From: Cladosporium halotolerans
Taxonomy: Eukaryota
Direction of reading: 5' to 3'
DNA length: 37,671 nucleotides
Assembly: GCF_011745625.1 (NCBI RefSeq)
Contig: NW_027191522.1
Span: 1-37,671, forward strand
Below are positions 4,034 through 37,671 of the stretch, piece by piece. The translations under genes and the position numbers were made by a program. Within the stretch, counting starts at the first letter, position 1. Every line of letters starts with the position of its first letter. Below the pieces are notes generated by a model that had not been told where the DNA came from, did no database searches, and saw only the letters and a list, made by a program, of their open reading frames with translations.

Positions 4034-5619
4034 GGTCGGGGAGGGCGGTGCCAGTCGCAAACGGAGGAGGGATCAGGCGCGAATGTTCATGCGGCTGCGG
4101 CGCGCAGGGCTGTGTCGTCGAGTCGAGACGGGCGGCGGCGGTAGGCAAAGCCAAGGGGTGGTGGTGGTGGGCGTCGGACGGGTTTTGTCTCGGAGCGCGG
4201 TCCAAGCATGCGCTGCCGGCGAGCGCAAAAGTGCTGAAAGCAGCTGCAGCGTATCACCAGGCTCCTGGGAGTGTTTGGCGCAGGCAGGAGCAGCGAGTGT
4301 GGTGGTGCTTGGAGGAAGGGACCGCGTTGTTTGCGCGGGAGGTGACCAAGGGACGGGGTCTGGCAATTATTGCTGGGCTCCACCAGGTATGTGGGGATGC
4401 GTGGATGCGTGGAGGGTGTGGCAGAAGATTACAGAAGGTGGTAGCGAGAGGATGGCGCGCACGAGGATAGCGACAGTAGTGGTGGAAAGAAGAGAAGCGA
4501 GCAATAGGCGAGATGATTATGGGAGAGCAGCACAGCAGCACAGCAACAGCAGAGCAGGCGCAGATTGGATGGGCTGGGCTGGACTGGCTGGACGGTGGAC
4601 TGTGGGTGGTGGAGGATCGGGGCACCCCTGGACGACGCAGGCACACAGCAGGCGCATGCTCAGGCACACAGATGGGCAGACCTGAGTACCTGAGGAGGCC
4701 ACTACTACAGCTGAGAGCTCTGCCGCCAGTCTCCCGTCCGTCTAGTGCGTCTTCGTGCCTGCAGAAGCCTCCGGCGCCCTTCGCCAGCCCTTCCGGCGCT
4801 GCGGACAGTGCGCACTAAACGCGCAACAAGAGGACGCTATACCCGCCGCGCACGCGTCGTCCACCTACCCGGCCACGCGCAGAAGAAGAATCAGTGGCCC
4901 GCCGCTCGCACCGCTCAGGGGCCATCGAGCCCAGCAGCCTTCACTTCCACCCGGCGATGCTGTCTGGTACCTGCCAAGCAGCCGCTAACCAACAACTAAA
5001 CCTCGCGACGGCGCGTGGGAGATGGCCGGAGATTAATCGACGGCGCGCCTTTAGCTTCTGCCAGCCTGCGCCCCCGTGATTGGCGCCGCCTGCAGCCCGT
5101 CGTGCCGTCGCTGGCCTCGCATGAAGAGGGCAGACACGCCAGGCGAAGGAAGCTTGCAGACGACCGAGGCGCTTTTAGCCTGCCTGTCTGTGCTACGACT
5201 CCCTCACGTCTTCGGCCTATACCGGCCAGTGCTTATATCAAGCCGACGGCCTGTGTCTCTGCATCTCCCGTCGTCGCAGGCCAACTGCCATGCATCTATA
5301 TCAGAGGCGCCGTAAGACGGTCATGTGCATCTTACGCAGCCAGCCGGCTTCACGTGCTCTGCTCCGTAGACCACACCGCTTGCCGTCGACGACACCGCTT
5401 ACGGGGAGCAGAGATCCTAGTTAGGTCCAGAAAAACGTGTCTCCAACGATAACATCATCTTCACTCCGCTCTCTCCACACAGCATTCCTGCCCACCGTTT
5501 CCTTTGTTCTCTTCTCCGCAAACACCGCAAGCCTAGCAATCAACACCGTCGCCACCTCGCCATCCGAGCACCAACCGACCAACCAACCCCCAACACCAAC
5601 AAAATAAAATAAAATAAAA

Positions 5620-6407
5620 ATGTACACAACCTCAACAACGACTCACCTCCCCTCCCCCACCCGCCCAATCCAACCCGAACAACAACAATCCCAATCCCTC
5701 TCCACGCACTGGTGGAACACCAACCTCCCCCCTCCCACCGCACCCCCACCTGCCCCTCCTACCTCCTCTACGCCCTGCACCAGCCCAAAGAGCTCGCGAA
5801 CCTCAGCACGCCCGACGCCCTTTTCGTCCGGCAATCCTGGCCCGAAGTGCGCGCCAACGTAGCCGCCAACCGCCTCGACAAATTCGTGCGCGTGCCCAGC
5901 GAGCTGCGAGAGTACAGGCGGGAGACGGAGCGGCTGGAGAAGGAGTGGGGGAGCGTGATGCGGTTCGTCGTGGAGGCGAGGCTGGGGTGGGGGGAGGAGG
6001 ATTTCCGGCGAGGGGGGGAGGGGCGGTTCGGGGGCAAAGGTGTGTATTTCTTTCTCATCCGTCCTACCTTGATGTCTTTTTTGTTCGCTTTCCGCTGATG
6101 TGGATAAAAAGACTCCTACACGATCCTCCCCAACGACTACCCCTACGGCATCGACCCGCGCATCAGGCACTTGGTCGTCTGGACGAAATTCGCCTTCCCC
6201 TCGGATCCCGTCACCGACGACCTGCTGCCTTCTGCGAGGCGGGAGATCGAGGACTTCGTGCGGGAGAGGTTCACGAGCGTCTGGGGCGAGGAGAATGTGG
6301 TTTGGTTTCGGAATTGGGGCGCGCTGAAGAGCGTGAGGGCCGTGGAGCATTTTCATGTTATGGTTTTTGGGATGGGGGGAGGGGAGGTAAGGGAGTTGAC
6401 GGGGTAG
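5620..6407 (+). CDS. DUF3605 / GIG1-like (HIT-like) protein, ~238 aa after correcting a 1-nt frameshift
   Basis: Exons 5620-6039 and 6112-6407; intron 6040-6111 (GTGTGT...CTGAT...AAG). Family motifs: ILPNDYPYGIDPRIRHLVVWTK, WFRNWGALKSVRAVEHFHV and NRLDKFVRVPSELREY. The ATG frame (…HWWNTNLP) joins the conserved frame (PSHRTPTCPSYL) only if one C is added to the C6 run at 5727-5732. Confidence 0.82.
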
Positions 6408-7234: not shown

Positions 7235-8263
7235 ATGGGAGAAAGATGTCGTGCGACGCTCGCGATGCTGCGGTACGCTGTGCCTTGTATCGCCAGTGGC
7301 GTGGTTTTTGCTGGCGTCATGATTTGGGCGGTGCTGTGTGCTGCCTGTCCGTCTATATGTCATATGCCATGCACATCGCCTGTCAGACCGTACGATTCAA
7401 GCATTCGCCCTCGTCGTATCATCCTATTCAACACCTATCATTACACCTTACTCTCTCCAAGTGTTTCTTCATCCTCCCCAACGTCGGCCTCGCCAGGCTT
7501 CAAGCCGCAGTGGAGCACCCAATCTCTGACAGGGCTTCCTCCGTGGGACCGTTGTCCCCGCCCACCCAATCACCACCCCCCACCGGCCTGAGCCTGGCAG
7601 CGATCTCGTCCAGGGCCTGCCGTGCGTTGCATAACGCGTGCATGTAGTGCATACCAGCCCGCCGAGCTAATAGCTGCCAGCAAGTTTTTTGGACGCCCAG
7701 TGTTAGCGTTGGCAGTACCGCAATCAACCACCTCCTGCCGCTACACCGCTCCCGTCTAGATCCTCACCACACCTGGGAGCCGGGTCTCTACCACCACTCG
7801 TCTGTACATACTCCCAATCGTTGCCTCGGACAAGCTTTTGCCCGCCGGCTCTTCATCTCGCCTCTTTCGTCCCTAGCCCCGTCCTTCCTCCCTTTGACCG
7901 TTGCCCGACGCTCCTTTCCAGGGCCCGCGCAGCCCAGCCCCTCGCACAGACAACTTTTTGGACTGTCTTCGTCGGCACGGCTCGTTGCTGCAGACATTGG
8001 CAGGCGACCACAGGCAAAGAGCACGGGAGAGCATATCCAGACGACTCTCGAGGCCGCGCGCGCGACATGAAGGCGGCGCATTGAGAGCAAACCACCCAGC
8101 CATACCCCACCGCACCGAACAATACTAAGCCCTCCCCCCCCGAGCCGCCCTCGCGCGACACCCGCACAAGGGCACCCACGCCGCACCGCTCTGCACCGCC
8201 ACCTCGTGTGACCAGCTCGTGCATCCTCGCCGGATCACAGAGCAAGCACCGGAGAGCTTCAAC

Positions 8264-11200
8264 ATGCTCGACTCCCTCATCCCCACGCGCTGGCGGCGCA
8301 ACTACGACCCCACCAACCCCGACAAGCCGGGCTTCTACAACCGCCAGATCACCCCGTACCTGCAGTCCGTCTCCCACAAGGCCTGCACCCACCCGGTCTA
8401 CACCCTCTCCTTCTTCGCCATCCTCGCCAGCACCACCTACATCAGCCTCCTCGAGACTGGCTTCTTCCAGCCCGCAGCGGTCGGCGGCGTCGGCAAGGTA
8501 GACTTTGGCGCTCTGAGCGCTGGAAGCAGGAGGTTGCAATTGGGCGAGCAGACTGGCTGGAAATGGCAGGTGGAAGAGAGCGGCGCTCAGCCTCACATCG
8601 CTGAGCAGGTTCGCGAGGACATTGCGCTCGTGACGCTGGCCTTCCCGGACGCCGGCGCAAACGTATCCCCCGATGCCCTCCTCCAGTCGATTTCCATCCC
8701 CAAGGACGGCTCGATCGAGGTCGTGCCTTCTTCGGAGAACATACTCTCGCCCATCTCTTCCGATGCTACCCTCGCCCTCTCCATGCCTTTCAGCGAGACG
8801 GCTCAGTTCCTGGACAGCGTGAAGGAGATCCCTGCGGTCGTTCAGGTATCCGCTCAGGAAGATGGCAGCGACGACGAGCCCGAGAAGAAGATGTGGCTTA
8901 TGAAGTCCTCCAAGGCCCCCGGCAGCTCTAGCAGTCTCGTCGAGTGGGCTCAGAACTCGTGGACCGCCTTCATCGACCTCGTCAAGAACGCCGAGACCCT
9001 CGACATTATCATCATGTCCCTCGGCTACATCTCCATGTACCTGACTTTCATTTCGCTCTTCACGAGCATGCGCAAACTGGGCTCGAACTTCTGGCTTGCC
9101 ACGAGCGTTCTTTTCTCCTCCGCCATGGCTTTCCTCTTCGGCTTGATGGTCACCATGAAGATGGGTGTGCCAGTCAACGTCGTGCTTCTTTCCGAGGGTC
9201 TTCCTTTCTTGGTTGTCACTGTCGGATTTGAGAAGCCCATCATCCTCACCCAGGCTGTGCTCTCTGCTGCCATCCAGGGCAGGCGTCCGTCTCCTCCTGG
9301 CAGCCCTGGCCCGAACAGCGGCGAGGCTCCGCTCACCATCCAGAACGCCGTCCAGTCTGCCGTTCACGAGCGTGGCTTCGAGATCGTCCGCGACTACGCT
9401 GTTGAGATCGCCATTCTGTGCGTTGGCGCCGCTTCCGGCATCCAGGGCGGTCTGCGCCAGTTCTGCTTCCTCGCCGCCTGGACCCTGTTCTTCGACTGCA
9501 TCATGCTCTTCACCTTCTACACCGCCATCCTCACCATCAAGCTTGAGATCACCAGGATCAAGCGCCACGTCGCCACCCGCAAGGCTCTCGAGGAGGACGG
9601 CGTCAGCAGGCGCGTCGCCGAGAACGTCGCCAACAGCAACGACTGGCCCAGGGACGACGTCATCAGCAGCGACCTCAGCATCTTCGGCCGCAAGGCTAGG
9701 GACAGCAGCATTCCTCGTTTCAAGGTCTTGATGGTCACGGGTTTCCTCCTGATCAACGTGCTCAACCTCTGCACCATGCCTTTCCGCGGCGCGTACCACT
9801 CGTCGTCTGCTACCGCCGGCATTTCGAACGTCATGAGCCAGCTTCCCATGGATCCGTTCAAGGTCGCCGGTAGCGCTCTCGATCACCTGTCTGCGCAGGC
9901 CAAGGCCAGCGACAAGCCTCTCTCCGTCACCGTCTTCAACCCTGTCAAGTACGAGCTCCAGTACCCGTCCGTGCACTACTCGCCTGCTGAGAAGTCCGAC
10001 TGGTCCATGTTCGAGGTCGATTACTCCGATGGCGTCTTCTCCGTCGTCGGCGGCAGAGTCGTCGAGAGCATCCTCAAGAGCTTCGAAGACCCCGTGCTTA
10101 GCAAGTGGATCATCATCGCTCTTGTCATGAGCTTGGTCCTGAACGGCTACCTTTTCAACGCTGCCAGGTGGAGCATCAGGGGCACCGAGACCGACAACAG
10201 CGCTGCACCCACCCCGGCCCTCAAGCCCGCCGCCAACGGCCACGCTGTCGCGCCCATTGTCAAGAACCCCGAAGATAGAGTCTTCAAGGAGCTCAGCCCG
10301 CTCGACGAGGCGCCCAACGGCTCTGTCAACCGCAGCAAGGAGGAGTGCGAGGCGATCGTCAAGGAGGGCAAGGCCGCTCAGCTCACCGACAACGAGCTCA
10401 CCGACCTTGCTCTTCGCGGCAAGATTCCCGGCTACGCTCTCGAGAAGACCCTTGGCGACAAGGTCCGTGCTGTCAAGATCCGTCGTTCGCTCATCGCTCG
10501 CACTCCTGCTACCAAGGAGCTCACTGCCAAGCTTGAGAACTCTCTCCTGCCGTACAAATACATGGACTATGACCGCGTCTACGGTGCCTGCTGCGAGAAC
10601 GTCATCGGATACACCCCTCTGCCTATCGGTGTTGCTGGTCCCCTGACCATCGACGGCCGCAGCTACTTCCTGCCCATGACCACCACTGAGGGTGTCCTTG
10701 TCGCCAGTGTCAGCCGTGGCTGCAAGGCCATCAACGCCGGCGGCGGAGCCGTCACTGTCCTCACTGGCGACGGCATGACTCGTGGTCCCTGCGTTGGTTT
10801 CCAGACCCTCTCCCGCGCCGCCGCCGCCAAGATTTGGCTCGACAGCGCTGCCGGTCAGAAGGTCATGAAGGACGCCTTCAACTCTACCTCCCGCTTCGCC
10901 CGCCTGCAAGAAATCAAGAGCACCATCGCCGGCACCTACGTCTACATCCGCTTCAAGACCACGACCGGCGACGCCATGGGCATGAACATGATCTCCAAGG
11001 GCGTCGAGCACGCGCTGAGCGTCATGTCGAACGAGTCCGGCTTCGAGGACATGGCCATCATCACCGTGTCCGGCAACTACTGCACGGACAAGAAGCCGGC
11101 CGCGATCAACTGGATCGACGGCCGCGGCAAGAGCGTCGTCGCCGAGGCCATCATCCCCGCCGACGTCGTGCGCTCCGTCCTCAAGAGCGACGTCGACGCC

Positions 11201-11796
11201 CTCGTCGAGCTCAACACCTCCAAGAACCTCATCGGCTCCGCCATGGCCGGCTCCATCGGCGGCTTCAACGCCCACGCTGCCAACATCGTCACCGCCGTCT
11301 ACCTCGCCACCGGCCAGGACCCCGCCCAGAACGTCGAGAGCTCCAACTGCATCACCGTCATGAGAAAGTAAGTCTCCTTGCCTTCCCTTTCGCCCCACCC
11401 CCAACCAAAAACCTTCCCCCAAATACTAACCCCCCTCACAGCCTCAACGGCAACCTCCAAATCTCCGTCTCCATGCCTAGCATCGAAGTCGGCACCATCG
11501 GCGGCGGCACCATCCTCGAGCCCCAGGCCGCCATGCTCGACCTCCTCGGCGTCCGCGGCGCCCACCCCACCAACCCCGGCGCCAACGCCCAGCAGCTCGC
11601 CCGCATCGTCGCGGCCGGCGTCCTGGCGGGCGAATTGTCGCTTTGCTCTGCGCTCGCCGCGGGACATCTCGTGAAGGCGCACATGGCGCATAATAGGAGC
11701 GCGGCGCCGAGCGCGGCGCCGAGTAGAGCTCAGAGTCCGGGGCCGGGGCCGGCGGGGCCGGCGGGGAGGGGGCTGGGAATGACGCCGAGGAAGTAA
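8264..11796 (+). CDS. HMG1: 3-hydroxy-3-methylglutaryl-CoA reductase (class I, with sterol-sensing domain), 1152 aa
   Basis: Exons 8264-11367 and 11442-11796; intron 11368-11441 (GTAAGT, TACTAAC at 11424-11430, CAG). HPIH-like N-terminus (HPVYT), sterol-sensing TM region ([17 protein letters not shown]) and catalytic motifs CENVIG, TTEGVL, DAMGMN, GQDPAQN and GHLVKAHM. Confidence 0.98.
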
Positions 11797-12124: not shown

Positions 12125-12243
12125 ACATACGACCACAGGTCAGTGAAAACTGGGCATCCCGTCCGCTCTGCCATACATAAGCACTGAACCGGGCGACTAG
12201 TACTAGAGTGGGTGACCATCTGGGAATCCCGCCTGTTGTATGT
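12125..12243 (+). rRNA. Dispersed 5S rRNA gene
   Basis: About 119 nt. The 5' ACATACGAC pairs with the 3' GTTGTATGT (helix I). It contains the conserved blocks CATCCCGTCCGCTCTG and TAGTACTAGAGTGGGTGACCATCTGGGAATCC, and is followed by oligo-T. Confidence 0.96.
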
Positions 12244-12265
12244 TTTTGATGGTTTTTTTTTTTTT
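12243..12265 (+). terminator. RNA polymerase III terminator (T5, then T13)
   Basis: T runs at 12243-12247 and 12253-12265, directly after the 5S gene. Confidence 0.85.
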
Positions 12266-21788: not shown

Positions 21789-23282
21789 ATGTTCGTCAAA
21801 GCCGCCGCTATCAGTACTCTGCTGAGCTTCGCCAGCGCTCAGGCATGGCGAGGTCTACCGGGTAGTCTCTACGGGCCTTCGGAGCCATGGGGATTCGCAC
21901 CGGAGGCAAGCTGGCCGCCCACGGATCTTGGAAAGGAAATCCAGCCTCAGAGGCCGGACAAATTGACTCGCGATATTGTCGCCCAGGTCGACCAGAAGCG
22001 CGTTGAGGACACCGTAACCAAGCTTGCGGACTTCGGAACAAGGCACACGCTTTCGATTCAGAACTCCAGCACACGCGGCATCGGCGCGGCCAGGGACTGG
22101 ATCTACAAGGAGATGCAAGGCTACGCTGCTGAGTCCGGTGGTAACATGGACGTATACTTCAACTCTTACATCCAGCCGGTGGCAAGCAGGATCTTGTTCC
22201 CTGTCAACATCACCAACGTGGTGGCCCAGGTCAACGGCACTACTGACCCGAACAGAGTTTACGTCGTGACAGGCCACTATGACAGCCGTCGCCTTGACGT
22301 AAACGACTACACTGGTGACGCCCCTGGTGCGGACGATGATGCTTCCGGAGTCGCTGTGGTGATGGAGATGGCCCGCATTTGCGCCAAGCTCAAGCCCAGA
22401 GCCACCATGATCTTCGCCGCAGTCGCCGGCGAGGAGCAAGGCCTCTACGGATCAGACAACCTCGCAAAGACCCTCAAGCAGCAAGGCTACAACGTCGAAG
22501 GCAACTGGAACAACGACATCGTCGGCAGCGGCTCCTTCCAACCCTTCAGCCCCATCAACGACTACACGATCCGCCTCTTCGGCGCCAGCATCCTATACCC
22601 CAACGCCTCGACCGCCGCCGAAGACCGACAAATCGGCATCATCGGCGGCGAAAACGACTCCCCCGCGCGCAACCTGGGCCGCTTCATCGCCGAGGTCGCC
22701 GCAGGCGCCTCCAAAGACCTCGACATGCAGGTCGCCCTCATCTACCGGCCGGACCGCTACCTGCGCGGCGGCGACCACCAGTCCTTCATCGAGCAGGGCT
22801 TCCCCGCCGTGCGCTTCACCGAGGCTGTGGAGGACTACAAGCACCAGCACCAGAACGTGCGGCTCGACAACGGCACGCAGTACGGTGACACGGTCGAGTT
22901 CGTCGACTTTGACTACACCTCGCGCGTCGCCAAGACGAACCTGGCGACCATGTGGGCGGCGGCCAACGCGCCGGCTATGCCGAGGAACGTCACGATCTCG
23001 CAGCAGATTGGTATCCCGGCTGCGGATGAGGACACGCCGCTGGAGATCGTGAACAATTTGAGCGCTTTCTCGTGGGTCACCGGTGGTGATCCGCTGGTTG
23101 CTGGGTATGAGCTCGTTTGGAGGGTCAGTGGTGCTCTGCAATGGAGCCACGCGCTCGATGTGGGCAACGTGGGCAATGTCACAGTTGATCTGCCCAAGGA
23201 TGTGATGCAGTTCGGTATCCGGGCTGTTGGCAGGGATGGCAAAAAGAGTCCGGCTGTGTTCCCTCTGCCGGGAAGCCGTTAA
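21789..23282 (+). CDS. Secreted M28-family zinc metallopeptidase, 497 aa
   Basis: Signal peptide MFVKAAAISTLLSFASA; Zn-ligand motifs GHYDS, GADDDASG, GEEQGLYGS, NNDIVG, GGDHQSF and HQH; beta-rich C-terminal domain. Confidence 0.92.
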   Translation: MFVKAAAISTLLSFASAQAWRGLPGSLYGPSEPWGFAPEASWPPTDLGKEIQPQRPDKLTRDIVAQVDQKRVEDTVTKLADFGTRHTLSIQNSSTRGIGAARDWIYKEMQGYAAESGGNMDVYFNSYIQPVASRILFPVNITNVVAQVNGTTDPNRVYVVTGHYDSRRLDVNDYTGDAPGADDDASGVAVVMEMARICAKLKPRATMIFAAVAGEEQGLYGSDNLAKTLKQQGYNVEGNWNNDIVGSGSFQPFSPINDYTIRLFGASILYPNASTAAEDRQIGIIGGENDSPARNLGRFIAEVAAGASKDLDMQVALIYRPDRYLRGGDHQSFIEQGFPAVRFTEAVEDYKHQHQNVRLDNGTQYGDTVEFVDFDYTSRVAKTNLATMWAAANAPAMPRNVTISQQIGIPAADEDTPLEIVNNLSAFSWVTGGDPLVAGYELVWRVSGALQWSHALDVGNVGNVTVDLPKDVMQFGIRAVGRDGKKSPAVFPLPGSR

Positions 23283-25304: not shown

Positions 25305-26748
25305 ACAACCATGCTGGCGTAAGAGTGTGGATGTCGACACCGAGGGGCGCGGGCCGTGAACGTCATCGCGAGGGGGCCAGTAGCCGAGGACGGCTGGTGT
25401 AATGGATGATCTGCCGAAAACCGTCAAGCTTTCCCACCGTTGAGAGTCATGGGACTGACGAAGACAGAGTCTACCCCGTGCATGGACGATCTTGGGCAGG
25501 GTTTGGAGATTGTTGTGCGGGGCATGTGCGGAGAATTGCAGCGTGGTCGTTTCGGTCATGCCCCGTTTTCTCCGCTTGCAAACCTGCAACGCGATTCAAG
25601 ACGCCAGCCACGTTGCGTCTTAGCGTGCAAGAAGATTTCTTGGCTGCTATATGAGGGAATTATCGACCGCATGCATAGGCTAAAGCTTTACCCACAAGGT
25701 GTGGGTTGCTCTGGCCTCGCATTGTGTGTTGGCAAACGGCTCGTGGATCACGCGTTCCTGGGAGACGTCGAGCGAATGAAATTTGCCAGAAGGGAATTAC
25801 GTTGCAAAATAAGCTTGTTCATCCTTCCAAGCAAAGCCCTACTTCGCAATGACCACACTTTAGTTTATGTCGCCAGTGTAAACATTTGAGCGGCAAGCAA
25901 ATTCCCTGACAGCTAAATCGCTTGCTGTAGCAAAGGAAACCTATGGAAAGCACCGAGGGAAGCCTTCAACAACATTTTTTTCCATTGAACTCGCTCCAAG
26001 ATATGCGGAAATGTATTGATAGTTACCAAGACGGATCAGATAATTGAGGATTGTCCAGACTGTTCTGATTGTAATCTACCGTTGGCAAATGTCGCTTCTA
26101 CTGGGTTTTTTGGGCAGACCATCGCATACCAAAGTCAAAAGAGCAGGAGGGTAGCGATGCCGGTCCATTTGAACAAATACGGGTATACTTTGCCCCTGGC
26201 ACAAATTTTTGAGAACGGAGTTGAGTCCCGCAGTATGGTAAAAGCTAGAGTCAGAAACCACAGAGGTTTACAAATATAGATCAATCAAGAGGAAAACAGG
26301 GTGGATTATATCTACGACCGGCCCGTTAGGCACTACAAATCCACGGTGCGATCATTCACTGCCAAGTTTAAGCATTCAGCTTATCGCTGACCAAAGGAAC
26401 AAGGGCCGGATATGGCGTTATGACCACATCGACGAGAGCATTATGCCCAAAGCGAAGGACGACAAAGGCAAGCACTGATCGGTCATCAGTCTTCAATGAG
26501 CCACAAATAACCATTGAACCATTTGGATCTAGGGCGTATACTTTCGGGTCTTACGCATGAACTCGCGCGGCGCCACGGCGTTCGTTGCCGAGTGGTATGT
26601 GTAACATTTTGCAGAAAGATACCAATATCTCATCTAGAAGGGGCGATGATGAGTAAACGGACGATGACATAGACTCTATAAGAACAATGATGCGCCGTGT
26701 GTCTCACGCGTAATAGAAATGTCATGTACAATTTTGGTTGATCTACGT

Positions 26749-26861
26749 CAAAAAGTGATGTACTTGACAAAGCGTGCGAGGGGATTCGAACCATCGAACA
26801 CGGCGCGCACAAAAAGTGACGGAACCGTTACTACCCGCCTTTGGAGAGTAGTAACGGTTCC
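26749..26861 (-). other. tRNA-type B-box cassette flanked by 10-bp direct repeats, next to a perfect 14-bp hairpin
   Basis: GGTTCGAATCC on the minus strand (26782-26792); CAAAAAGTGA at 26749-26758 and 26810-26819; stem GGAACCGTTACTAC (26821-26834)/GTAGTAACGGTTCC (26848-26861). Confidence 0.6.
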
Positions 26862-27193
26862 TGAGGTAATGACCCTCTCGACGTTACATATAGGTACTCA
26901 TTAATCCTCTAACCCCCAATCTGCTGCTGCGAGGTGTGTCAGGTGACCAGGGGTCGGCTGGTGGCGACAATGACCACGGATTCACCTATTACCGTCACCA
27001 TCGGCTTGATACAGGCACTACAGAGATGCTTGAAGAGAGATTGTTACGGAACAGAGGAGGGCGAGATCAGCTTGGATTGTATGGGTCTATCTAATACACA
27101 GCTACACAACGGTTCTGCAAGGTTCGATGAAACAGAGGTTGTGGCCTTCTCCAGATTGAGACGCGAGACGCTCTCCATGTACTCGAGGTGGTC

Positions 27194-27612
27194 CGCTCGC
27201 CAGACAAAAAGAGGAGCGTGCCAGCGTGCGGTTCATCATCCGAAGGGTCTTCATCCCTCAGTTCGAACTCCACGCTGGCACGCTCCTCCTCTTCCGGACG
27301 AGCGCTATTGTTGCTCTTCACTTGCGAAGAGCCGGCACTCTCCGAAGTGAAGAGCAACAGGGTGACCGCCTCCTCCAGCCCCTCCGCATCACCCTGCATT
27401 CCGCGGCAGCGCACGGTAGGTGGAGGGTTTGTGTGAGGAAGTTATGGGCTGGTGTTGCTGCTCCGGCTCCATGATGACCACCGACCACAGAAGCGATAAC
27501 TTCTGCGATGGTGGCCACCACTTTGCCAGGAGCGGTGCCACAATCACCTCCACCACGCTGGCCGCCGGGGCGACCAGCCCTTCCACCAACCGTGCGTCCG
27601 GCTGCAACGGAA
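27194..27612 (-). ncRNA. Highly base-paired RNA domain (three long hairpins); candidate structured ncRNA or small-RNA precursor
   Basis: Perfect 18-bp stem 27211-27228/27271-27288, perfect 15-bp stem 27309-27323/27345-27359, and near-perfect 18/19-bp stem 27410-27427/27578-27596 with outer pairing out to 27399/27612. The inverted repeats are certain; RNA function and strand are inferred. Confidence 0.5.
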
Positions 27613-28448
27613 CGCTCCAGTCCCTTGTTGGGGGGCCCAGAAGACTAAAAGAATAACGAAGTCAGTGTCTGATCGGAGTAGCAAGGTTGGAGCGAGATAT
27701 TGGGACTCACCAATGCGTCCAGGGTGAGGCGGGCTGCCATGGAACCGTTCCTACTCTCCACTTGGATGTCGATCTATTCAGCGGCGGCTTCCAGGGCCTT
27801 GGTGGCCGCCGGCGGAAGGCAGATCGCGATGAGAGGCATGCTGGGCCAAACGGCAATGTCTTTGCAACTTGTGACGCTTTTGACGAAGTGAACTGCGAGA
27901 CTCAGTCAGTATGTGGACGAATCAGGACAGGGAGGGTTGAGAGAGGATGCGTACCGTCGGGCGCGCCGCCGAAGCGATGTGCATGATGAGCAGCAAGGTC
28001 TGCTGATGGGGTGTAGACACGCTTATGATGTGGATGACGATAATGCTTGATGCTTTGGTACGCTGTGTATGGATGGCGGCCGTCTTGGTCGTTGTGTGCT
28101 CGATGACGGTATGAGCAGGCGATCGGCGGCTGGCGTCGCTGATGGAGCTCCGCTCGGGATCACTGACGTTGTGAGTGAGCAAGCGTTGTCGAGGTGGAGG
28201 TGTGAGAATACTTACCGTAGCCTCTGCAGGAGATGCCACGTTCGTGCAGTGTCGTGCGTGGTGACTTGTCGTTCACTGCAAGGAAGCTGCTGGTGAGCCA
28301 CGCTGAGTGGAAGTGAGGTCCTTGGTCTTGCTTCTGCGGCCGTCAAGTGACGAGACCGCGACGATGCTCTGCAGTGGGAGTGTGTTTGTGTGAGCATGGT
28401 GTGCAGTGTGGTGTTGTTGTTGTTGTTGTTGTAGATGTGTGTGATCAT
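27389..28448 (-). CDS. Four-exon orphan gene model (292-aa ORF, or a spliced lncRNA)
   Basis: Exons 28448-28216, 28162-27955, 27892-27711 and 27644-27389; introns 28215-28163 (GTAAGT..CTCAC..CAG), 27954-27893 (GTACGC..CTGAC..CAG) and 27710-27645 (GTGAGT..CTGAC..TAG). The frame stays open across all three junctions (879 nt). Confidence 0.5.
28413..28430. repeat. (GTT)6 microsatellite
   Basis: Directly visible; it would encode poly-Asn near the N-terminus of the four-exon ORF. Confidence 0.85.
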
Positions 28449-29160
28449 GGTGAGTGAGTGAGTGAAGAGGTTGGGGAGAGAGGAAGAGAAAGAGAAGAAG
28501 CGGAGGCGGTGGAATTAAAGCAGGCAGCCGCCAAGACGCTTGCCTTCCTCGTGACATGTGGAAGGAGCTTCACAAGCCTGTGACGGGTGAAGCAGTGTGA
28601 GGCCAGGCCAGATCTACAAGTGAGGCTTACTGGTCGAGAGACTATTCGTGCATTGCCCTGCCCTTCTGAGCAACCGTGAGCCATGCGAGGGACCTCTTCA
28701 ATGTAACGACCTCTGTGTTGAGCAGGGGGCCTTGATGGAGCTCTGAGGGATAGCCGGTGGCCGCGGCGGTCAGTGTTGAAGGGCAGCTTGGCCTACCCTA
28801 GTCACCACATGGGCGCGTTTCTCTGACTGCCGACGCGACGCAACACTACCCTTGGGCAACCCACGTTTTTTATCATCATAGGATCTTCCTACAATTAGAT
28901 AGAGCGTCTCAAACACTCTGACTTCCTCATGGAGCGTTGATTGTGTGATTCCTCGTTCCGGTCAAAGCTTATCCAGATATGAGCGTTCGCTCCTTTGACA
29001 GAGCACGTGAAACTAGTTCACGATCTCAGTTCCAGATCACAGGTAAATATCATTCTGATCGTAGATACAGCGAAAAACCTTTTTCGAAATCGCCATACCT
29101 CTTGTGCTCATCTCTGCCTTCATAACAACACGACAGCAATCCGTACCATCGACCGCAACC

Positions 29161-29322: not shown

Positions 29323-32300
29323 GGAACGCGCTCTGATCCTCGTATGAAGGCCGAACGGCCTCTCTAACAACAACATCTTCGAGACCTGCGTAAGTCCCAC
29401 CGGCCTCCCAAGAGAGGCCCCTGCCCGACGCGCCCGCCGAGCAGCCACCCGGCGCGTACAAGAATCACAAACGCCGCTATCATCAAACCCCCAGATACCG
29501 CATGAGTGTCAGGCTCGAGTCGGCCAAGGCCGGACTACAAGGCGAGACAATGGATAGACCGCAGCGTGCTAGAGAAGGCAAGACCTTAGCGACATGCTCG
29601 CAGATAAGAGCATGCCAGACACAGGGAAGCACAGCTCGCGGACGCTGCTCCAGTACGGCCTCAAGCCAGAGCTGAGACCGGAAGAGGAGATACCACCAGA
29701 GACCTGATTGCCTACCGCAGAAGGCAAAAAGAGAAGTTGACAGAGAAACCGATGCCTCCCAGAGAAGGCGATCATATTCACGGTCAAAAGCTGGGACAGT
29801 GTCTCCCATGGGAGACAATGTCAGCTCAGAACACGGCAAACGACTTCCAGGGAAGAAATTTGGCGCAGCGGATACTTGCAGCTATGACGATTGTCTTGAT
29901 CGCACAGCGGAGACTACCGAGAAGTCATACCAAGAAGCGACAGCCATGGCTAACACGGTTGGTGATCCGCAGGATTCGAAGAACAGTCACCATTCCAAGG
30001 CGACGAAGCGACAGCCAGAGCGTGTACAGCTCGCGCGCAGGGTCTCGGTGTCCGAAACACAAAATGACAGCCATGACAATCACAGCCGATCCTCCGTTCT
30101 GGGCCCAGCAGTGCTCATCGCTCGATGTCGGAACAAGTCCTATAAGGCGTCTGCCAAAGCATCCACCAGTTGCATACCTTGATCCTTCAGATCGAGCACC
30201 AGAACAGCAATCAGTCGCAGCCAAAAGGAGGTAGCGTGCTAGTAGATGTTGGATGTCGTGGAAGAGAGTGTGTTACAAAAGCTGTCTACAAACAAGAGAA
30301 GGTTGCAGCACCTAGCTTCGATAGTGAATGCAATCTTAGCTCGGCTAATGCTAGTTCGCAGCAAATTCCGCAGTCACAGTATGTTTGTCAAGATATCCGC
30401 GACATTGGCAGTGACTGTACCGTCGTCACATACAAGGACGGGCGAGAACCCATTTCAGCTCTCAAAAGAAGTGCATGTCGGCCGGGCGACGACCGTCGGC
30501 CTGAGGGACGTTCAGGACACTACCTAGGATTGGATGCTCTCGATCGGAATGCGGCCCGATACAACATGGCAACAGGAATGCAAGTTCGCGAGATTGCGAA
30601 GTCTCGCCCACACCGCACGTTTCCAGACTGTTCCCCACTGGCACCATCACAGACACGGGGATTGACTGACATCTCCAGTGCTGTGCTCGATGTCGTCACG
30701 CCAAAAGCTGTAGGCGGTTTTTGGCAATACAGGCGGATCACAATGTCCCCTATCTATGTGTAAGGAGCCAGTATAGCGATGAGCCAATCATCGTTCAAGC
30801 CATTCCGCACGACAGCAACCCTCTTTGGTAATCCTAGCAACCAATTGCAAGGCTGTAGAAGGCAATACCTGGAACCTCCCCCGTGAAGCTTCAAGACCAA
30901 AGCATGGTAACGGCAAGCCACATTACAACAAGCGCTCGGCTATTTTGCTTCAATCTCCGAGGAGCGGAGCAATTCTTTCGCTGCCCTCATTCTCAGGCCG
31001 CAGTGACCAGAGCTCGGAAGACACCATCGCCTCCATTAGCATTCACCCGAGAGCGGCACCGACGCAGACCACCTGTCCGATAGCGGAATGACAAGACAAG
31101 TCCATCTGCACAAAACCACCGATTCCTCCCCAAAGCATCGCCTGTCGCAACCCGCAACCCCATCCCCGAGGTCTGGGGTCATCACACCTCGGGCAGCCGC
31201 GGGCAGTCCTCCAAGCGCACGCACGCCTATCTCCCGTCTACTGAGATCTCCACGAAAAAGGAAAGACTCCACAAAGCCACTAACGCAGCACCTGCATTGC
31301 CGTTCCTGGCCGAGCGACTTGGAAAGATAAGATAGGGCAAGAAGGCAGAGATTACACGATTTCCCGACGTCTCGGCTTCGGACCGGGCCTTCACAAATAC
31401 CTTATTACAGAACCTAAATTTTCTTGCTGGAAGAGTGTGCGCGCTAGTGGTGGGCGGAGGAGATCTCGCGTGCGTCATGAGGTCTGCTGACCTGTGGTGG
31501 AGTAAGGCTGGTCTGGCCTGCTCTGGCTGCGGAGCGCAGTCGCGATGAGCCAGCATAGCGCAAGATGGAAGGGCGACGGCAGGTCCATCAGCCAAGTTGG
31601 CAGTGGGACAACGGCCTTCGTCAAATTTGCAGCAGCGAGACAACAATGACGAAAGCCAGAGACACGTCTTCATGACAACTGCACAGCTCCGACTCCCAAA
31701 CCCGCACGCGACCAGCCGCCCGCCCTCCAATCAGCGCATCACCAATCCCATCATCACCGTCGTCTCCTCCCATCCTCCTCCCATCACCAGCGCTCGCAGA
31801 TAGCCCGTCCTCCGGCCGCCTCCCCCAAAATCGACCGCTGAGCGCCCGAACGCGATCTTCAAAGCCCTTCCCCACCAACACCAGCAGCGCCAACGTCGTC
31901 CGACAATAGCCGCCTGGACTTTGAGTTTCCCTTACAGCAGCAAATCGCCCCCCGACCCCACAAGGCTGGCGCGCAGGGCTCCACTGGCTTCAAAGCCGCT
32001 CGGCTTTTCTGTGCAGGGAGGCTGCGCGCTAACGGGTTCTAGTGCGTGCGGATTTGAGGGCTCTGGGAGCTTGAGGGGACGTCGGGTCGTGGATGGTGAA
32101 GGGGAAATGGAGAGGGAGGGTGTGTGGGAAATACGAGTGGTTTTGAAATGTTCATTCGTAATTGGTTGTTATATAATAATGTGTGACGTGTATGGAAATT
32201 GCGCCGGCAGATTCTCTGCTGCTCGTGGTAAGAAATGCACCCATGCCTGTACAGTTTGAGGAAAAAGAAAAGCCCCGTCCATCCAACCGTGCTGAAAATT

Positions 32301-37112: not shown

Positions 37113-37236
37113 GGACGGCACGTTTCAACAACTTTGTGCTCTGGCAAAGCAATCGGAAACTGTGGAACCCTCTGTTCTGTTTCAGACCATTAGTCTTCGG
37201 AAGGAAACTCAAAATAAGTTCCTCTGTCGATCCGGG

Positions 37237-37305
37237 TGATACCTCGCCTCCAGCGGCCCCCAATTCCCACAGCCGTAAACGGCAATTGCTGGAGGCAAGG
37301 TATCA
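37237..37305. repeat. 18-bp inverted repeat with one mismatch, forming a hairpin
   Basis: TGATACCTCGCCTCCAGC (37237-37254) versus GCTGGAGGCAAGGTATCA (37288-37305), with an inner GCCGT-AA-ACGGC mini-stem. Confidence 0.9.
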
Positions 37306-37577
37306 GCGCGGACCGGTGCAGATTGATATGGGCCGTGGGTGGACCGAGCATCGATAAGATGGCCGGTACCGCTCGACTTGCTGAACAAAGTCGAAACCCC
37401 GGCCCAAGTGTTTTCTGGGTATCCGATCCCTCTCTTTCACAGACCGGTCTTGTACCCTTCGACGCGCTGCGTGTCAATGTCTTGGTTTTTGCGAGAAGAT
37501 GCCTCTTCGATGATGCCCGTTGAGGATCAAACGATCAGGCGGTCTCAGATGGCCGAAGTTAATGGGCCTCGACCATA

Positions 37578-37671
37578 GATCTTGAATCTTGATTTTCTCA
37601 ATCAGATAATCAATCAGGTAATCAATCAATCAGGTCCCTGATTGAGCTCGGACCTGAATAATCAGATTCAG
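37578..37671. repeat. AATC-rich micro-repeat segment at the window edge (possible transposon or MITE terminus)
   Basis: Reiterated (A)ATCA units at 37599-37633 and inverted pair TCAGGTCC (37630-37637)/GGACCTGA (37650-37657). Confidence 0.45.

Follow-up and report, generated by a model that had tools for sequence, protein, structure and literature searches.

An unclassified structured RNA locus in Cladosporium halotolerans with a hairpin array, two specific sequence links and a candidate role in a small-RNA circuit

Several described RNA systems share parts with the locus reported here. The four main milRNAs of Neurospora, milR-1 to milR-4, derive from Pol III units that carry a T run and TATA-like elements (PMC3547838), and milR-2 depends on Argonaute slicing, not on Dicer (PMC3547838; PMC3759863). 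Precursors of Drosophila hpRNAs are spliced, capped and polyadenylated (PMC10317233), a hallmark of plant TAS3 is a poorly conserved ORF that ends 8–20 nt before a non-cleavable site (PMC5699049), and short hairpins processed by Argonaute have a 16–20-bp stem, a loop of ≤5 nt and a 5′ guide (PMC5737282). A literature search that covered few of the subscription papers found no paper on the present locus or its arrangement. Judged from sequence, it is a genuine structured RNA locus, as yet unclassified, that carries two specific sequence links, and its function is a candidate one.

The window, by which we mean the whole 37,671-nt stretch analysed (contig NW_027191522.1 of assembly GCF_011745625.1), holds genes recognized by domain as Spa2, ING, histone deacetylase, peptidase, esterase and proline dehydrogenase, plus a 5S gene. 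This 5S rRNA gene (12125–12244, plus strand) belongs to a dispersed set of at least 39 copies, and a 1190-codon ORF without a Pfam match (7853–11425, minus strand) has a paralogue with 69% identity on C32. The last 97 bases of the window (37574–37670) are the exact reverse complement of G000:C681:1-97; both contigs thus stop within a common repeat or where an inverted repeat has been collapsed.

The hairpins had been placed by an initial annotation at the 3′ end of a spliced host transcript, and this transcript was recovered: contigs of run X8 join over three GT-AG introns on the minus strand, and the joints equal those of the public gene model P0050. The X8 splice joints have only 20–25 letters on their short side, below the 31-letter bar, in contigs without listed differences from the window, and X8 is possibly the source of P0050, so that these two lines of support are not independent. 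Exon 1 (28216–28520), bounded by the joint 28162/28216 in X8 and by P0050, has an approximate 5′ end, placed by a pyrimidine-rich tract, and its first ATG lies at 28448. It is followed by intron 1 (28163–28215, 53 nt; X8 joint), exon 2 (27955–28162; X8 joints and P0050), intron 2 (27893–27954, 62 nt; X8 joint and P0050), exon 3 (27711–27892; splice joints), which contains a 21-codon ORF (27839–27774) and a site that we call A, and intron 3 (27645–27710, 66 nt; X8 joint 27644/27711). The array lies in exon 4, the last exon, and no branch-plus-acceptor motif for an alternative intron skipping it was found in 27644–26801. The spliced 292-aa ORF (27389–28448; splice joints and public model) is identical to the hypothetical protein P0050; the annotated CDS includes domain I of the array and stops before hairpins H2 and H3 and a 41-nt hairpin farther downstream. 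Contig depth in X8, which cannot rank genes and whose holes prove nothing, was ∼5,500–5,900 for the exon 1–2 pieces, 1,862 for 27113–27313, 44–67 for 27314–27715, 0 for 26711–26911 and 50 for the esterase gene; duplex regions are known to drop out (PMC10317233).

The stems that had been read from the sequence are largely as described. Perfect pairing was found for 27211–27228/27271–27288 (18/18, with outer CGCTCG/CGAGCG 6/6 and inner GTTC/GAAC 4/4) and for 27309–27323/27345–27359 (15/15), which on the minus strand lengthens to 22 bp including two G-U pairs. An 8-bp stem is present with all eight positions paired at 27358–27365/27389–27396, its left arm one base away from the 27359–27366 first proposed, and the stem 27410–27427/27579–27596 exists but is less perfect than claimed, with 16 of 18 positions pairing ungapped (14 of 15, a bulge, then further pairs). 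The nested helices CAGAAG/CTTCTG (6/6) and GCTCC/GGAGC (5/5) were confirmed, the former as the tip of a 23-bp hairpin (27521–27471) with six G-U pairs that had been missed and that folds at −36.8 on the minus strand vs. −18.5 on the plus strand. In the minus-strand fold, the array comprises the branched domain I (27396–27615), closed by 14-bp and 15-bp helices and containing the 23-bp hairpin (27471–27521); the 8-bp stem (27358–27396; 8–10 bp in the fold) with its purine-rich loop, which competes with the base of domain I; H2 (27310–27358), with 22 bp and a 4-nt loop; and H3 (27194–27304), with 38 bp, a 7-bp apical stem and a perfect 18-bp core. The last two were also recovered by the inverted-repeat scan.

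Folding energies set this region apart. The minus strand of 27180–27630 (451 nt) folds at −265.9 kcal/mol (z −13.98), a value reached by 0 of 100 shuffles, and the plus strand at only −220.4 kcal/mol (z −7.45); both lie far below their shuffles, the minus strand much more so, in agreement with the strand favoured originally. G-U pairs make up 21 of 169 pairs in the minus-strand fold vs. 11 of 151 in the plus-strand fold, and every module of the array folds better on the minus strand. Only two perfect inverted repeats in the 37.7-kb window reach 15 bp with their arms lying ≤200 nt from each other, and both belong to the array; even one perfect 12-bp inverted repeat arises in just 4 of 300 shuffles of the region. 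Three consecutive 150-nt tiles over the array on the minus strand have z values of −3.9, −5.8 and −7.0, the last being the lowest of 251 tiles, among which three outside the array reach −5.2 to −5.6. The array hairpins are real RNA structure belonging to the minus strand. Elsewhere in the window, tiles with z values of −3.5 to −5.6 lie at 29551–29850, which includes a 14-bp palindrome (29795–29822), and at 31951–32100, 37201–37350, 25651–25800 and 22501–22650.

The array and its flanks are single-copy in the genome contigs, as far as searches that give lower bounds can tell, and with the same reservation the 20-bp inverted ends at 26842 and 27760 have no other genomic copy. Rfam returned sub-threshold hits only, and neither a repeat match nor a tRNA was found. 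Ascomycete telomerase RNA was considered and rejected, with no Rfam match and no template-like repeat near the locus, the telomere repeat used in that search being the one we presume to apply. A MITE or foldback element with many copies sharing terminal repeats was also rejected, given that no further copy was found by these lower-bound searches. DNA orthologues could be confirmed neither among metagenome contigs (63 and 127 pattern hits) nor among viral contigs (22). Pieces of runs X2 and X3 over 27182–27587 carry 9/151, 12/207 and 8/270 differences and by themselves show no constraint, since these rates are no better than those of flanking pieces. Constraint appeared in a substitution test on one cluster of six related ORF records over 27543–27094, in which single-base changes are deduced from amino-acid differences, so that two of three codon positions are seen and two-sided covariation is not visible. 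Among the 19 changes, 3 fall on 128 long-helix sites and 16 on 172 other visible sites (Fisher p 0.011); two of the three still pair as G-U, and one change is disruptive vs. 3.8 expected (p 0.054). Folding is equally good in the variant that bears the eight shared changes, and in the weaker helices changes do break pairs. Given the folding and strand bias, the single copy, the lack of an Rfam family and the sparing of the long stems, the array is very probably a selected RNA structure and not a MITE. The initial annotation is partly supported by these sequence comparisons: its structured minus-strand RNA in a spliced host stands, and milRNA production is a candidate property.

A better milRNA candidate, and the sole sequence with an evident target, is 26861–26821, which lies outside the 27194–27612 interval annotated before. 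This minus-strand hairpin of 41 nt, found by folding ∼330 nt beyond a 48-nt stretch described below, has 18 pairs (16 uninterrupted), a 3-nt loop and one U-C stem mismatch near the loop, and folds with a z of −7.9; on its 3′ side follow 5 nt and then a T run, with a 9–10-nt tail. Its 5′ arm B (26861–26842), which faces the 3′ arm A′ (26839–26821), is complementary at 19 of 20 positions, with a central mismatch, to site A (27741–27760, minus strand) in exon 3, a match found in 0 of 300 shuffled loci. The A/B motif is confined to the locus, with 3 genomic matches at ≤3 mismatches vs. 10 for the control. Site A lies 13 nt past the stop of the 21-codon ORF, abuts ATG 27740 and precedes the intron 3 donor by 30 nt. 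The supplements of PMC9757828 contain neither Cladosporium nor arm B in its DNA spelling.

Around the 41-nt hairpin, a motif scan of the minus strand found elements of Pol III milR type, at the level of motifs only: a TATA-like motif (26888–26892) 30 nt before 26862, a T5 run (26811–26815) 6 nt past the hairpin, whose 10-mer context recurs at 26758–26749 with a second T5 (26754–26750), and an exact B-box (26782–26792), with no A-box found in the surroundings. The B-box is the sole exact one in the window, where 0.12 were expected and 12 of 100 shuffles have one somewhere. We take 26888–26892 to be a TATA-like motif and 26782–26792 to be a Pol III B-box on the basis of consensus sequences that we assume, and the 30-nt spacing to a start at A 26862 is presumably the usual one. 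If 26862 is the start, guide positions 2–17 pair with the 3′ arm, and positions 2–21 pair with site A except position 11. The B-box also sits within a small tRNA-like arm (26812–26770, minus strand) with 6–7 closing pairs, which at z −1.3 is not significant alone and drew no tRNA call. In run X1, contigs return to the window at 26728 and at 26748 and depart from it at 26894, an interval equal to the span of the TATA-like, T5 and B-box motifs; an X2 piece over 26728–26923 has 12/196 differences.

The other specific link is the 48-nt stretch 27187–27140 (minus strand), which begins 7 nt past H3, directly 3′ of the last hairpin. A genome search showed it to be identical at 44 of 48 positions, in the same sense, to codons 226–241 in the coding middle of a coiled-coil ORF of 385 aa that lies on a different contig (G000:C671:693095-694249), with an E value of 1.6e-11 and no further copy in the genome, where the coiled-coil gene also has no other family member. 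A decayed paralogue was rejected, given that the similarity ends sharply at a 48–62-nt patch; in the wider family of the gene, this stretch is unconserved. The coiled-coil protein matched no Pfam or NCBIfam family; it has 37 relatives, and its model predicts three long helices. Its family (P0001, alignment A2) has a conserved C-terminal motif and a CmcJ/NvfI-type domain upstream in 5 of 20 aligned members, and the gene has a long C/A-rich leader (L002:150-826), which has a 16-mer in common with host exon 1 (28399–28414; 15/16, E 0.54).

In run X1, two contigs of the apparent coiled-coil orthologue likewise end at 27140 and 27187, and one contig leaves the window at 26894, skips 26895–27129 and resumes at 27130. 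From these ends and this resumption, placed at 80% likeness, the 48-nt stretch seems to predate the split from the X1 relative and to have persisted next to sequence that cannot be aligned; the stretch, like the motif block, aligns at ≥80% next to patches that do not. All four differences from the gene are G-U-compatible for an antisense copy of the stretch against the coiled-coil mRNA (−101.2 vs. −92.5 kcal/mol for the opposite strands), an outcome with a 1-in-16 chance, and they may be drift after one-time capture. A S-to-T change among homologues of the gene has no counterpart in the six RNA homologues, and the minus-strand host RNA itself showed no pairing with the coiled-coil mRNA above shuffles. 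Of 13 core codons, 11 are identical, which looks more like nucleotide than peptide constraint. Another short shared piece lies 2 kb from the locus: 29417–29455 is identical at 35 of 39 positions to G000:C681:1994-2032 (L023, L027), both copies are preceded by a near-identical 17–18-mer that in the window includes a splice-donor-like motif, and X8 and X1 contigs show the same ends. The C681 locus revealed no ORF family and no strong fold. No further shared pieces were found in 19.9 kb of the window (39 of 52 candidates scored, 38 of them 5S copies), in a search that missed the known 39-nt piece.

Starting from the observed stems, strand, splice sites, single copy, A:B and 48-nt matches and motifs, we tentatively propose that the locus may work as an RNA in a small-RNA circuit. 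In the spliced Pol II transcript, the 22–38-bp hairpins of the last exon would be a substrate or a boundary for RNase III (Dicer); a Dicer-domain gene is present in the genome, with one Dicer_dimer match. The 41-nt hairpin would be a short separate RNA, transcribed by Pol III as its motifs might indicate, or a product cut from a read-through transcript, and the small RNA from arm B would be loaded in Argonaute and bind site A in exon 3, where a start at 26862 would put the lone mismatch at guide position 11 and imply binding without slicing. The host RNA, marked or cut, would serve as template for an RNA-dependent polymerase that starts at the 3′ end of this RNA and proceeds as far as the hairpins, and the resulting antisense strand over the 48-nt stretch would silence the unlinked coiled-coil gene. 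The complete trans-acting siRNA cascade at one fungal locus, from a Pol III-made, Argonaute-processed 41-nt hairpin through non-slicing binding to its upstream neighbour and array-bounded copying to antisense siRNAs from a captured 48-nt fragment against one unlinked gene, is unlikely as a whole.

The small-RNA circuit draws on the folding and strand bias of the array and the avoidance of substitutions by its long helices, on the locus-specific A:B match, on the low z of the 41-nt hairpin together with its TATA-like motif, T5 and sole exact B-box, on the alignability of the motif block and 48-nt stretch in X1, on the unique, wobble-compatible match and on the Dicer-domain gene. Set against it are the sense orientation of the 48-nt stretch, outside any stem and unpaired with the mRNA, which makes it necessary to postulate an RdRP or antisense step, and wobble compatibility of a kind that chance or drift after capture could give, with the S-to-T change unmirrored. 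The absent A-box, the hairpin mismatch and the long 3′ tail, the latter two contrary to the rules of Argonaute hairpins, also weigh against it, as do three AUGs in another frame that precede the 21-codon ORF, the length of the 292-aa ORF, the dependence of the substitution test on one cluster with two of three codon positions, and the 80%-likeness placement of the X1 joints. A:B also forms in cis, which leads to a strong rival that we consider doubtful. In a read-through pre-mRNA, arm B would pair with site A first and then flip to A′, thereby controlling intron 3 splicing, 3′-end formation or use of ATG 27740, and A:B would loop out intron 3, the array and the 3′-end region, with the hairpins compacting the loop. 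Such a cis switch agrees with the position of site A next to the donor and the ATG, and with the energies, which are −32.4 kcal/mol for A:B vs. −31.2 kcal/mol for B:A′, with forced A:B 3.4 kcal/mol above the free-fold optimum and a computed probability of 0.95 for A:B in nascent RNA ending before A′. It leaves the TATA-like, T5 and B-box motifs and the 48-nt match unexplained, and no contig holding both A and B was found. The other strong rival, also doubtful and a shade more so, is a structured mRNA tail: the transcript would encode the 292-aa protein or one of two short products farther downstream, starting at ATG 27740 (118 aa) or at ATG 27178 (44 aa, the first of which are MESVSRLNLE as in the coiled-coil gene), and the hairpins would bind proteins and set stability, location or translation. 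An ORF of 292 codons is longer than those of 1984 of 2000 shuffles, 16 giving one as long, a public gene model exists, both 707-nt X1 pieces over exons 1–3 have 9 gap letters, a multiple of three, and the peptide in common with the coiled-coil gene is in frame with the long ORF. However, the codon scores of this ORF are negative (−0.10, −0.02, −0.34 and −0.14, vs. +0.01 to +0.26 for seven real genes), its protein has no Pfam family, a one-member cluster and a pLDDT of 0.32, second codon positions account for 4 of 10 visible changes, and codon identity in the shared stretch looks nucleotide-like. The 292-aa ORF is probably not a selected protein, and looks weakly coding at best.

According to the version closest to the initial annotation, the array alone would matter, its three unbranched stems of 22, 23 and 38 bp each yielding discrete 19–25-nt milRNAs with imperfect targets, and the 41-nt hairpin and the 48-nt stretch would be incidental, which we think unlikely. 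These three helices and the 18-pair hairpin are unbranched with ≤20 unpaired bases, the duplex form required of fungal mi/milRNAs in PMC9757828, and the stems are conserved in a genome with a Dicer domain. Two X8 chimeric contigs also end inside 5′ stem arms (27349 and 27582), as cut ends might, but each is one contig, joined to the 5′ part of an unrelated mRNA from a membrane-protein gene or a Zn2Cys6 gene, in one case right after the ATG. Guided trans-splicing was rejected for these contigs, given that their partner–array pairing was equalled by 10 of 60 and 48 of 60 random 30-mers, which points to library chimeras. In addition, the one arm tested, from H3, had 5 other genomic matches at 2 mismatches vs. 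5 for the control, with no target excess, and the host is a Pol II spliced transcript with part of the array in an annotated CDS. Very unlikely is a relic of a foldback or MITE-like element, with 26842–27760 as terminal repeats and a captured gene fragment, without present function. The 20-bp inverted ends, the captured look of the fragment and the shared piece at 29417–29455 would fit such a relic, but ends and body have no other copy, the span crosses a spliced intron, G-U pairs are biased to one strand and the stems are spared by change.

Compared with Neurospora milR-1 to -4, the 41-nt hairpin is likewise an intergenic stem-loop with a T run directly behind it and a TATA-like element, at motif level (PMC3547838). 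Unlike those units, it measures just 41 nt and has a near-perfect site in a neighbouring upstream transcript, and the array belongs to an exon of a spliced Pol II transcript, with T run and TATA, A-box and B-box elements absent. Like Drosophila hpRNAs in PMC10317233, the locus combines a spliced, mRNA-like host and long duplexes with a segment whose homologue is an unlinked gene restricted to one lineage; in contrast to them, no duplex arm homologous to that gene was found, the matching piece being sense and outside the stems, and there are several short stems where hpRNAs have one inverted repeat. As in plant TAS3 or the target mimic IPS1 (PMC5699049), a poorly conserved ORF, a short ORF 13 nt before a centrally mismatched putative site, within the 8–20-nt TAS3 range, and a downstream segment matching another mRNA come together, with guide start and ORF use conditional on our reading; here, however, the setting is fungal, the guide is encoded beside its target, a hairpin array lies between site and segment, and no second site was found. 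Its 18-pair stem, 3-nt loop, target-matching 5′ arm and, with a start at 26862, unpaired 5′ A recall miR-451-type hairpins, but those have no mismatch and a 1–3-nt 3′ overhang according to PMC5737282, unlike the mismatch near the loop and the long 3′ tail observed here. Homology to mir-451 itself was rejected (Rfam score 19 bits vs. a cut-off of 66.5). The locus thus appears to resemble parts of the milR, hpRNA and TAS3 systems and is assigned to none, because defining features of each either fail or are not assessable from sequence. Convincing endogenous targets are available for few of the small hairpin RNAs of fungi; in this case, a guide and a site can be read from the sequence itself, together with one further gene. 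Should the cis switch alone prove true, the locus would be a long-range RNA switch of 900 nt, of no established class, with a conserved hairpin array inside it; should the cascade prove true, it would give fungi a TAS-like relay that arose from the capture of a gene fragment.
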